Positions 28,400 to 31,300 of a DNA stretch of 64,000 nucleotides are shown one piece after another. Origin of the DNA: Bacillota bacterium (lineage in GTDB: Bacteria > Patescibacteriota > Minisyncoccia > Phycocordibacterales > Phycocordibacteraceae); assembly GCA_050260455.1 (NCBI GenBank), contig JBLNCF010000015.1, positions 12,269-76,268 on the forward strand, written 5' to 3'. Every line of letters begins with the position of its first letter. Within the stretch, counting starts at the first letter, position 1. The notes under the pieces are model-generated. The model ran no database searches. It had not been told where the DNA came from and saw only the letters and a program-made list of their open reading frames with translations. Position numbers and translations under genes: made by a program.

Positions 28400-31300
28400 A
28401 AAAGACTGGGCATATTAGTACTTCTCGGCTCAACACATTGCTGTGCTTCCACCTAAAGCCTATCAACCAAGTCATCTTCTTGGAGCCTCATAACGATTCC
28501 TTATCTTGGAGCGCGCTTCCCGCTTATATGCTTTCAGCAGTTATCGCTTCCCGACATAGCTACCGAGCGGTGCCACTGGCGTGACAGCTCGTAGACCAGA
28601 GGTCAGTTCACCCCGGTCCTCTCGTACTAGGGGCAAGCCTCCGCAAGAATCAACGCCTGTAGTAGATAGGAGACCAACCTGTCTCACGACGGTTTGAACC
28701 CAGCTCGCGTACCTTTTTAATTGGCGAACAGCCAAACGCTTGGGACCTTCTCCAGCCCCGCGCTAAGGTGAGCCGACATCGCTGTCAGCGCGCACACTCT
28801 TATTACTAAGAGGATCGGACTATATCTTCATCCCCGAAGGGAGCCTGACGTGTAGTCTCTGAGGGTTTTCCATAGCCGAAGCCGTAGGAATCTTCCCTGC
28901 TGATTGCCCCCATCCATGCGTTTTCGAACCACGCAGCTCATCCTTTCGGATCACTGTTTGGGTCGCATGATGTTGGAAGGGTTTCCAGCATATAGTCAGG
29001 TTGTTGTTGTAGCGCATTACTGCGCTAGGCACCCCGATGATTTTTTCATCGAGCTCGAAAAGACTTCTTTGCAGGTAACAGGCCGTAGCTTTGATAAGCC
29101 AAGGTGCCGAACTCCGCCGTCGCTATGGACGCTTGGGCGGAACTAGCCTGTTATCCCCAGGGTAACTTATATCCGTTAATCTCTGGCCGCATCTAAGGCG
29201 GACCATCGGTTCACTATGCTCTGCTTTCGCATCTGCTCGGCATGTACGCCTCGCAGTTAAGCCCTCTTTTGCCATTACACTATCGGCACGGTTTCCATTC
29301 GCGCCTAGAGGACCTTAATAGACTCCTCCGTTACTTTTTAGGAGGATAGCGCCCCACCAAAACTACCTGCCACGCACGGTCCCGATATGGTTCTCATACC
29401 GGTTAGGAACTGCACATTGTAAGAGTGGTATTTCACTGGCGACTCCACGACCCCCGAAAGGATCGCTTCAAAGTCTCCCACCTATGCTACGCATACAACA
29501 CACAGCCCCAATACGAAGCTGTAGTAAAGCTCCTGGGGTCTTTTCGTCTAACTACAGGTAACCGGCATCTTCACCGGTATTGCATTTTCACCGAGCGAGT
29601 CCTCGAGACAGTTTTCCACTCATTACACCATTCGTGCACGTCTGAACTTACCAGACAAGGAATTACGCTACCTTAGGACGATTATAGTTATCGCCGACAT
29701 TCACCGGGGCTTATAGGGTCCAGCACTACATCCGAAGACATAGCACCTCCCCTGCTTGACCTTCCGGCATTGGTCAGGTGTCACCCCCTATACATTCTCT
29801 TACGAGTTCGCAGGGAGCTGTGTTTTTGGTAAACAGTTGGCAGAAAATCTTTCGCTGCGGCCCCAACATTGCTGCGGGGCAGGCCTTATCGCTAACTTAC
29901 GGCCGCTTTTTTGCCGAGTTCCTTGAGGACCTCTCACTCGTTCGTCTTACTCTACTCGAGCTGACCACCTGTGTCGGTTTGCGGTACGGTCGAACACACA
30001 CTGAAGCTTAGAAGATTTTCTTGGAACCGCGCTCCCTATACTCCTCCCCTCCGTAGAAGAAAGTCGTCGCTCTGCTCGGATTTGTGCGTCCCGGATTTAC
30101 CTAAGACACGTCCTCACAGCACGAACCCACATCCAATCGCGGGCTATAAGTACAGCAATCCGTCTCTCCATCGCATGTGTGTCGGTCATGGAATATTAAC
30201 CATGTGTCCATCGGGTGCGGCTTTCGCCATCCCCTTAGGCCCGACTAACCCTCAGTTGATCACCATAGCTGAGGAAACCTTGGTCTTTCGACGCGCGGGG
30301 TTCTCACCCGCGTTGTGGTTACTTGTGCCTGCATTCTCACTTCGCAACGCTCCACCATGGGTCACCCCTTTGGCTTCACAGCAGATGCGAACGCTCTCCT
30401 ACCGCTTGTGCACTTCATAGAGGAACGAATCAATGATGATTCGAGGTTTGTTTGGCGGAGCCGACAGGAATCGAACCTGTGACCTCCAATCATCACCCTA
30501 CTAGATTTCAGGCGAATCCTGGCGCTCTCCCTTCTGAGCTACAGCCCCCAAACAAACAAAAAGAACTCTTACTTTCCTCTATGAAGTGCACAAACCCGCA
30601 GTTTCGGCATGATACTTAACCCCGATTATCTTCGGCGCAAGAACCCTCGATGAGTGAGCTGTTACGCTTTCTTTAAATGGTGGCTGCTTCTAAGCCAACA
30701 TCCTCATTGTCAAAGGATTCTCACTTCCTTAAGTTGTACTCAGTATCAATTTTGGGGCCTTAACTGGCGATCTAGGCTCTTCCCTTCTCGACCGATGGAG
30801 CTTCGCCCCCATGGTCTAACTGCCATGCTGTAACTCTTGGTATTCGGAGGTTGATAGGAACAACGAGGTTTCCCCCTATTTGTCCCTTCCAGTGCTCTAC
30901 CCCCAAGAGGATCACATGACGCCAGCCCAAAAGCTGTTTCGGAGAGAACCAGCTATTACCAGGTTCGATTAGCTTTTCACTCCTTACCACAAGTCATCCC
31001 AAGACGTTGTACGATCTACGGGTTCGGGCCTCCATGTGGATTTCTCCACACTTCACCCTGCTCATGGCAAGCTCACCTGGCTTCGGGTCGTATGTATGAC
31101 ACTATCGCGCTATTCACACTCGGTTTCCCTGTAGCTCCATCCCATTACGGATTTAGCTGGCGACATACATACACTCGCAGGCTCATTCTTCAATAGGCAC
31201 GCTGGAACGGATCGAAACCCGCCCCAACCCTTTGTAAGTACACGGTTTCAGTTCTATTTCACTCCCCTCCCGGGGTTCTTTTCACCTTTCCCTCACGGTA

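Follow-up and report, generated by a model that had tools for sequence, protein, structure and literature searches.

What is a sequence with the shape of a transfer RNA (tRNA) doing in the middle of a 23S ribosomal RNA (rRNA) gene? The question is raised by a stretch of 64,000 nucleotides (nt) of contig JBLNCF010000015.1 (positions 12,269 to 76,268 of the forward strand, assembly GCA_050260455.1), hereafter called the window, whose source is a bacterium of the candidate phyla radiation (CPR; Patescibacteria, Parcubacteria-type). The tip of helix 45 in the 23S rRNA encoded there is replaced by an insertion that is closed by a long perfect stem and that holds a 96-nt element which, judged by its sequence, is derived from tRNA-Ala and has lost its anticodon loop. 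This helix-45 arrangement is a conserved cassette of CPR bacteria and not a one-off.

The helix 45 insertion and its basal stem

The 23S rRNA gene that hosts the insertion spans positions 28394..31861 (minus strand), as defined by its match to the Rfam LSU_rRNA_bacteria model (2327.5 bits, model positions 1-2925) and by alignment to the 23S rRNA of Escherichia coli. Its 3468 nt, versus 2904 in E. coli, bear out the remark of the initial annotation, made from the sequence alone, that the gene is longer than typical. Pairwise alignment to the E. coli molecule places 171 extra nt after positions 1163 and 1183 and shows E. coli ~1164-1185, the tip of helix 45, replaced by the insertion, which is the site that had been proposed; positions 1159-1250 of the Rfam model flank it.

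The ends of the insertion form an inverted repeat (30406-30425 / 30574-30593) of 20 nt that are 100% complementary and enclose 148 nt. The perfect stem of the initial annotation is thus real, but its coordinates were ~41 nt too high: the segments 30447-30464 and 30617-30634, to which it had been assigned, are not complementary. The 20 perfect Watson-Crick pairs together with one G-U and one G-C pair make up stem 1, a 22-bp helix (30404-30425 / 30574-30595) in which the base of helix 45 is extended. Its 5' arm (GUUUGUGCACUUCAUAGAGGAA, 30574..30595, minus strand) and its 3' arm (UUCCUCUAUGAAGUGCACAAGC, 30404..30425, minus strand) are defined by the inverted repeat and by covariation in relatives, and follow each other on the rRNA strand in the order CUGCGG, 5' arm (30595-30574), insert interior, 3' arm (30425-30404) and GGUAGGAGAGCGUUC. 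The 20-mer of the arms has two sites only in the window, the 3' arm being unique there, while shuffled sequences are expected to hold none, even at 3 mismatches. A miniature transposon was rejected as the origin of the repeat, as each arm is single-site in the window and the frequent G-U pairs and compensatory changes described below point to pairing at the RNA level.

Among 43 distinct relatives, 99.6% of the cells are paired over the 21 pairs of stem 1 that were tested. Compensatory changes are found at 15 of these 21 pairs, G-U pairs are frequent and all register-shift controls collapse; the compensatory changes and the frequency of G-U argue that selection acts on the pairing of the RNA. 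The distal half of the stem (UUCAUWGAGG / CCUCWAUGAA) is conserved in sequence too, beyond pairing, including in 14 genomes that were found without this motif as query.

Site and architecture are those of the helix-45 intervening sequences of Salmonella, Yersinia, Campylobacter, Leptospira and Coxiella, which interrupt the 23S rRNA at the same position (E. coli ~1170) and whose ends likewise form a long double-stranded stem. The assignment to the RNase III-type intervening sequences of 23S rRNA, made initially, agrees with a helix 45 tip closed by such a stem.

The tRNA-like element and its surroundings

The element occupies positions 30453..30548 (minus strand) and is recognized by ARAGORN, by Rfam, by a covariance model trained on modules of relatives (model R1, built from 29 modules with the window excluded) and by alignment to E. 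coli tRNA-Ala. A 96-nt tRNA-like element had been correctly spotted on the rRNA strand, though again ~41 nt too high. Rfam RF00005, the covariance-model check that had been proposed, gives it 47.9 bits, above the gathering score of 29 (E = 3.7e-7 over the whole window), and model R1, for which it lies outside the training set, 66.3 bits (E = 6e-16). Its parts, all on the minus strand, are an acceptor stem (30542-30548 / 30457-30463; GGGGCUG / CGGCUCC) with G3:U70, the identity pair of tRNA-Ala, a D-arm (30524-30539; GCUC/AGAAGGGA/GAGC), a remodelled anticodon arm of 37 nt (30486-30522), a T-arm (30464-30480; ACAGG/UUCGAUU/CCUGU), the discriminator G73 (30456) and an encoded CCA (30453-30455). 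D-arm, T-arm, G3:U70, discriminator G and encoded CCA are all present as first described.

Apart from the anticodon arm, the body of the element is that of a tRNA-Ala. The 5' 28 nt of the element show 3 differences to E. coli tRNA-Ala, the variable region GGAGGUC is identical and the T-stem differs by compensatory changes; the discriminator is G73 and not A73, which is an identity element of tRNA-Ala. Outside the anticodon arm (~59 nt) all pairs of the acceptor (7/7), D-stem (4/4) and T-stem (5/5) and all elbow nucleotides are kept. CCA is encoded in the element, yet not in the genuine tRNA-Ile gene of the window. A transfer-messenger RNA (tmRNA) was rejected as its identity, neither ARAGORN nor Rfam making such a call.

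The anticodon arm has 37 nt in place of the usual 17. It had been called degenerate, and 29 of its nucleotides are indeed left unaligned by the covariance model; in its best fold a 4-bp stem leads through a 3x3 internal loop to a 6-bp stem capped by an 11-nt loop. The anticodon loop selected by ARAGORN (GAUUCGC) has A at position 33, and no fold of the anticodon arm has a loop of 7 nt with U33 and purine 37; the element therefore cannot decode. The ARAGORN label 'Glu (ttc)' conflicts with the Ala-type body and is an artefact. The initial suggestion of a functional class-II-like tRNA is not supported, since the extra nucleotides lie in the anticodon arm and not in the variable arm, and no 7-nt loop with U33 is formed.

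The element is embedded in a structured interior. A linker of 16 nt (30558..30573, minus strand), unpaired in the minimum-energy fold, carries the motif GUUCUUU (30560-30566). Directly 5' of the element, the leader strand of a stalk (GUUUGUUUG, 30549..30557, minus strand), defined as one side of an inverted repeat, faces the trailer strand (CAAACAAAC, C75 to C83, 30446..30454, minus strand), which is supported by the inverted repeat, by folding and by relatives and which overlaps C75 and A76 of the encoded CCA. These two residues and the first seven nt of the trailer AACAAACCU pair with the leader. Hairpin 3 (CGAAUCA-UCAU-UGAUUCG, 30426..30443, minus strand), predicted by folding and found in relatives, has a 7-bp stem and is flush with the 3' arm of stem 1. 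The folding energy of the complete insert is -87.7 kcal/mol (z-score -6.7 versus shuffles). A hand-built structure with stem 1, stalk, full cloverleaf and hairpin 3 reaches -83.7 versus a minimum of -85.8 kcal/mol; the two structures, 2.1 kcal/mol apart, differ mainly in the acceptor region, whose register is shifted by two bases.

The core of rRNA boxA reads GCUCUUU in E. coli and GUUCUUU in Gram-positive bacteria. The linker motif resembles this core and is unpaired, but it comes without the boxA 3' half and the likeness is putative. The window's own rRNA leaders read CCCUUGAAAACUGAAU (16S) and UUCUUGAAAG (23S), unlike the motif, and GTTCTTT is found in few 23S leaders. Note that at 31275-31281 the rRNA strand carries AAAGAAC, within the universally conserved 23S stretch GAAAAGAACC, which is the exact complement of the spacer GUUCUUU; transient pairing between the two is conceivable, and the match may be due to chance.

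The helix 45 cassette in relatives

Relatives were collected by two scans. Genomes, one per species, were searched for a T-loop at a distance of 44-74 nt from the conserved stretch of 23S that lies 3' of helix 45, and metagenomes were searched with the 3' arm of stem 1 and its 23S flank as query, a tRNA not being required. The genome scan returned 18 loci, 14 of them from CPR / Patescibacteria (Kaiserbacteria, Paceibacterota, Parcubacteria, Saccharibacteria). In these 14 genomes one to five tRNA hits fall within the Rfam 23S match, an arrangement found in no other phylum: L006, L007, L015 and L018 (Clostridiales, Bartonella, Lachnospiraceae and Thermoplasmata) have no 23S match and are chance matches. 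The metagenome scan gave 49 loci. The comparison with related 23S genes that had been recommended thus uncovered a frame common to 14 CPR genomes and 49 metagenome contigs, composed of the covarying basal stem, the GUUCUUU motif, a leader-trailer stalk with 1-5 tRNA or tRNA-like modules and a 3' hairpin. The nearest relatives of the window by 23S identity are L034 (91%), L016 and L033 (88-90%, Paceibacterota), L057 (88%) and L009 (88%, Kaiserbacteria).

GTTCTTT is present in 27 of 49 distinct inserts, where it mostly precedes a tRNA-like module by ~12-27 nt. In relatives, 27/39 modules are enclosed by a helix of 7 bp or more, varied in sequence, that is formed by leader and trailer, compared with 17% in shuffled controls. 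A hairpin of at least 5 bp, also differing in sequence, stands at the position of hairpin 3 in 44/51 distinct inserts (hairpins of at least 6 bp occur in ~5% of shuffles).

ARAGORN identifies 40 distinct modules in helix-45 inserts. By a heuristic for an acceptor stem plus T-arm, modules are present in 27 of 49 distinct complete inserts versus 8 of 980 shuffled interiors. Model R1 has 53 matches in 0.5 Mb, of which ~48 lie in helix-45 inserts, all those on the rRNA strand. In the metagenome scan with its tRNA-free query, a module is found in 20 of 40 distinct inserts (19 by R1, 1 by the heuristic), again all on the rRNA strand.

Modules range widely in their resemblance to working tRNAs. The anticodon loop is canonical in 14/40 modules only and CCA is encoded in 27/40; all loci together have only 3 tRNAs outside helix 45, too few to serve as an ordinary CPR tRNA control for these counts. 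Enlarged anticodon or D arms, as in the window, are found in L003, the first module of L004, L013, L026, L045 and L058. At the other end are functional-looking modules: Ala-UGC in L004 (82 bits), Arg-ACG in L067 (82 bits), Lys-CUU in L019 and Trp-CCA in L008 and L021, the last two sharing the loop CUCCAAA and G73 while their stems differ. G3:U70 is present in 9/40 modules and in L026, and only one of these has the anticodon loop of a tRNA-Ala. Position 3:70 is enriched in G-U (7/29 versus 2 or fewer at other acceptor positions). Across the family, tRNA shape, CCA and covarying stalk persist in modules that have no usable anticodon loop.

Several further observations concern the modules. Module 2 of L012 and module 4 of L014, from distant lineages, have canonical loops with anticodon CUA, amber-suppressor-like, which ARAGORN labels Pyl; the enrichment of stop-codon-reading triplets in module loops is not clearly above chance. 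Modules of L010 and L017 have different stems and the same non-canonical loop CCGUAAG, readable as a GUAA tetraloop closed by C-G, and the loop itself may be under selection. A 132-nt tRNA-like match lies just upstream of the 5S gene of L008 (7206-7337; 58 bits with R1, 39.7 bits with Rfam), so that tRNA-like modules are not confined to helix 45.

Inside the same frame, insert interiors are wholly different between relatives at ~90% 23S identity (88-91%), as expected if the spacer is discarded. Insert contents range from 59 to 624 nt, and the inserts of L054, L056 and L057 have no module. The 59-nt insert of L056 looks as if an L030-like interior had been cleanly deleted between two CATA repeats, with only stem 1 and hairpin 3 remaining; the interior appears dispensable in this variant. 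The variable part of the inserts of L009, L010, L030 and L037 holds a copy of the 16S 3'-domain sequence AGUAAUCGCGGAUCAGCAUGCCGCGGUGAAU, and the insert of L010 an 85-nt piece 78% identical to the 23S 5' end, sequence matches which suggest that rRNA-operon fragments were recruited into the spacer. Such an origin was rejected for the interior of the window, as BLAST found pieces of this kind in other inserts only. In L011, L041 and L057 an AGGAG Shine-Dalgarno sequence precedes a small open reading frame (ORF) of 23, 70 and 48 codons for amino acids, respectively, with ATG at insert position 40-41; two of the three products are strongly hydrophobic. Small ORFs are also found in some classical intervening sequences.

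The remaining features of the rRNA genes of the window can be described briefly. The region 30380-30640 has no group I or group II intron match at E <= 1, and an intron was rejected as the identity of the insertion; the sole intron match of the 23S gene (28796-29049) is the Rfam core of an ORF-less group I intron of ~320 nt (28782-29101, 88.9 bits) inserted after E. coli position 2500. A further ~106 extra nt versus E. coli are found in 23S domain I (31472-31641), after positions 227, 272 and 291. The rRNA genes are unlinked and their order is unusual (13839-16032 and 28205-31861, minus strand): 23S-5S is followed by ~12 kb of co-oriented protein genes, with FtsW, glycosyltransferases, FolD and SecDF, and then by 16S-tRNA-Ile. 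Promoter-like sequences lie upstream of the 23S and of the 16S. The 16S is followed by tRNA-Ile only, with no tRNA-Ala after it. L026 shows the same order, its 16S lying ~12 kb after the 23S.

Proposed processing of the insertion and its meaning

The account of the insertion that we favour, with moderate confidence, is that of a processed internal spacer that fragments the 23S rRNA and whose tRNA-shaped module is handled by tRNA-processing enzymes, the module of the window being a non-decoding relic. The CPR helix 45 insertion would be organised like a small internal transcribed spacer and transcribed within pre-23S rRNA. RNase III would cut in stem 1, as in classical helix-45 intervening sequences, and RNase P and 3' trimming would act on the tRNA-shaped module once the stalk is opened. 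Excision without religation would leave the 23S rRNA as two pieces of ~1.27 kb and 1.7 kb. The normal-looking modules of some relatives (Ala-UGC, Trp-CCA, Arg-ACG, Lys) would presumably be released for use, while the 96-nt product of the window, whose anticodon loop is lost and whose acceptor, D-arm, T-arm, elbow and CCA are kept, would be only a processing handle or a by-product and not a decoder. The RNase III gene rnc is retained in CPR genomes (PMC12641178). A catalogue of CPR rRNA insertions (Tsurumaki et al. 2024, PMC11270868) proposed, for short insertions other than introns at two sites of the 23S rRNA, that they are intervening sequences of the RNase III type.

Several known systems come close. 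Fragmented 23S rRNA without religation is the outcome in classical helix-45 intervening sequences and would be expected for the CPR cassette too. Classical ones are sporadic, whereas both sequence and pairing of the CPR basal stem are conserved throughout a phylum-level radiation, and the CPR interior is a structured cassette of motif, stalk, tRNA module and hairpin, unlike theirs; we know of no classical helix-45 intervening sequence with a tRNA. The tRNAs of the 16S-23S spacer (Ile, Ala), accompanied by boxA, are transcribed together with the rRNA, flanked by processing stems, and set free by RNase III and RNase P. The tRNA-Ala-derived module of the window and the putatively boxA-like GUUCUUU next to it recall this arrangement, but the CPR spacer lies inside the 23S gene and most of its modules are not usable decoders. 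Organelles have tRNA punctuation of transcripts and split rRNA genes: the mitochondrial large subunit rRNA of Tetrahymena is interrupted by tRNA-Leu, and a tRNA between two large-subunit rRNA pieces is separated from them by tRNA-processing enzymes. The CPR case differs in its bacterial genome, its helix 45 site and its extra stem of RNase III type. Non-decoding tRNA-shaped elements kept for recognition by RNase P and RNase Z are represented by the t-elements of plant mitochondria and by mascRNA of MALAT1; these belong to other hosts and transcripts, and cleavage of the window element is putative. With the tRNA-like domain of tmRNA, which can be charged with alanine without decoding, the element has in common G3:U70, the T-arm, CCA and the lack of an anticodon loop, and it differs by having an intact D-arm and no messenger-like reading frame or pseudoknots.

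A number of points weigh against the processed spacer. Excision, fragmentation and release of a 96-nt RNA are all inferred from computational analysis. In the conserved stalk the 5' leader pairs with the CCA end, so that RNase P would be hindered as long as the stalk is neither opened nor cut, and this also fits a structure that stays intact; the pairing argues for an ordered pathway or else for a retained structure, and this is the main uncertainty. A G at -1 and a run of five G make the RNase P site ambiguous. Non-canonical modules were counted with tRNA-finding programs, a procedure biased to elements whose acceptor and T arms are good. Among the close relatives, none has the Ala-derived module of the window.

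The best-surviving alternative, which we nevertheless regard as unlikely, is that of an inert relic: an ordinary RNase III-excised intervening sequence in which the element is a decaying pseudogene of a spacer tRNA-Ala, without any role. It would account for the destroyed anticodon arm, for G73 in place of the A73 of tRNA-Ala and for the fast turnover of interiors between relatives, module-free inserts included. Neutral decay, however, would hardly be so uneven as to leave the ~59 nt outside the anticodon arm fully paired, with the elbow kept, while the arm gained ~20 nt, nor does it sit well with the family-wide persistence of shape, CCA and covarying stalk in modules that lack a usable anticodon loop.

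A bolder proposal, offered tentatively and a shade less likely still, extends the processed spacer to the whole group. CPR helix 45 would be a dedicated internal transcribed spacer expressing tRNAs, and in some lineages needed tRNAs (e.g. Ala-UGC, Trp-CCA, Arg-ACG) would be made only inside the 23S gene, coupling ribosome and tRNA supply. The many non-decoding modules with G3:U70 and CCA, that of the window included, would then be under selection either as handles for RNase P or as RNAs that accept alanine and act outside decoding.

That the insertion is instead a retained expansion segment, the mature large subunit bearing a helix-45 extension capped by a tRNA-shaped domain, is improbable. 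The stalk that leaves neither end of the element free, the sequence conservation of the distal half of stem 1 and the almost constant hairpin 3 would suit such a domain. They are set against the spread in contents from 59 to 624 nt and the interiors that differ between relatives at ~90% 23S identity, the canonical tRNAs of several inserts, which would be useless unless released, and the established knowledge that long-stem helix-45 insertions studied in other bacteria are excised (PMC11270868).

Slightly more doubtful again is a released, chargeable and non-decoding RNA, alanylated via G3:U70 and CCA and acting, for example, as amino-acid donor or regulator. The recurrence of G3:U70 among the modules, the enrichment of G-U at this position and a CCA that is encoded here and not in the tRNA-Ile gene are in its favour; yet G73 replaces the identity element A73, descent from a spacer tRNA-Ala could explain the enrichment equally well, and CCA is part of the conserved stalk sequence CCAAACAAA. 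A functional decoding tRNA whose extra anticodon-arm nucleotides are removed or tolerated can practically be dismissed, for although the element passes the tRNA covariance model and receives an anticodon from ARAGORN, the extra nucleotides are far too few to make up a self-splicing intron, no fold offers a 7-nt loop with U33 and purine 37, and the assigned 'Glu (ttc)' is at odds with the Ala-type body.

No report of tRNAs inside 23S insertions was found in the searchable literature, outside which lie many subscription papers, and a prior description is possible. The word tRNA is absent from the main text of PMC11270868 and from its one text-readable supplementary file, and the 2022 paper of the same group has it solely in the title of a reference. 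Helix-45 intervening sequences and spacer tRNAs are textbook knowledge, while tRNA genes or tRNA mimics inside 23S genes across a large radiation are absent from the searchable papers. The cassette provides a natural series, from an intact tRNA to a tRNA shape without anticodon loop, in which one can ask what parts of a tRNA are retained when processing or charging is all that is required. Should the modules be processed, maturation of CPR 23S rRNA would depend on tRNA-processing enzymes, some tRNAs would be made in fixed ratio with ribosomes, and tRNA genes overlapping with rRNA genes may be lost or treated wrongly by annotation pipelines.

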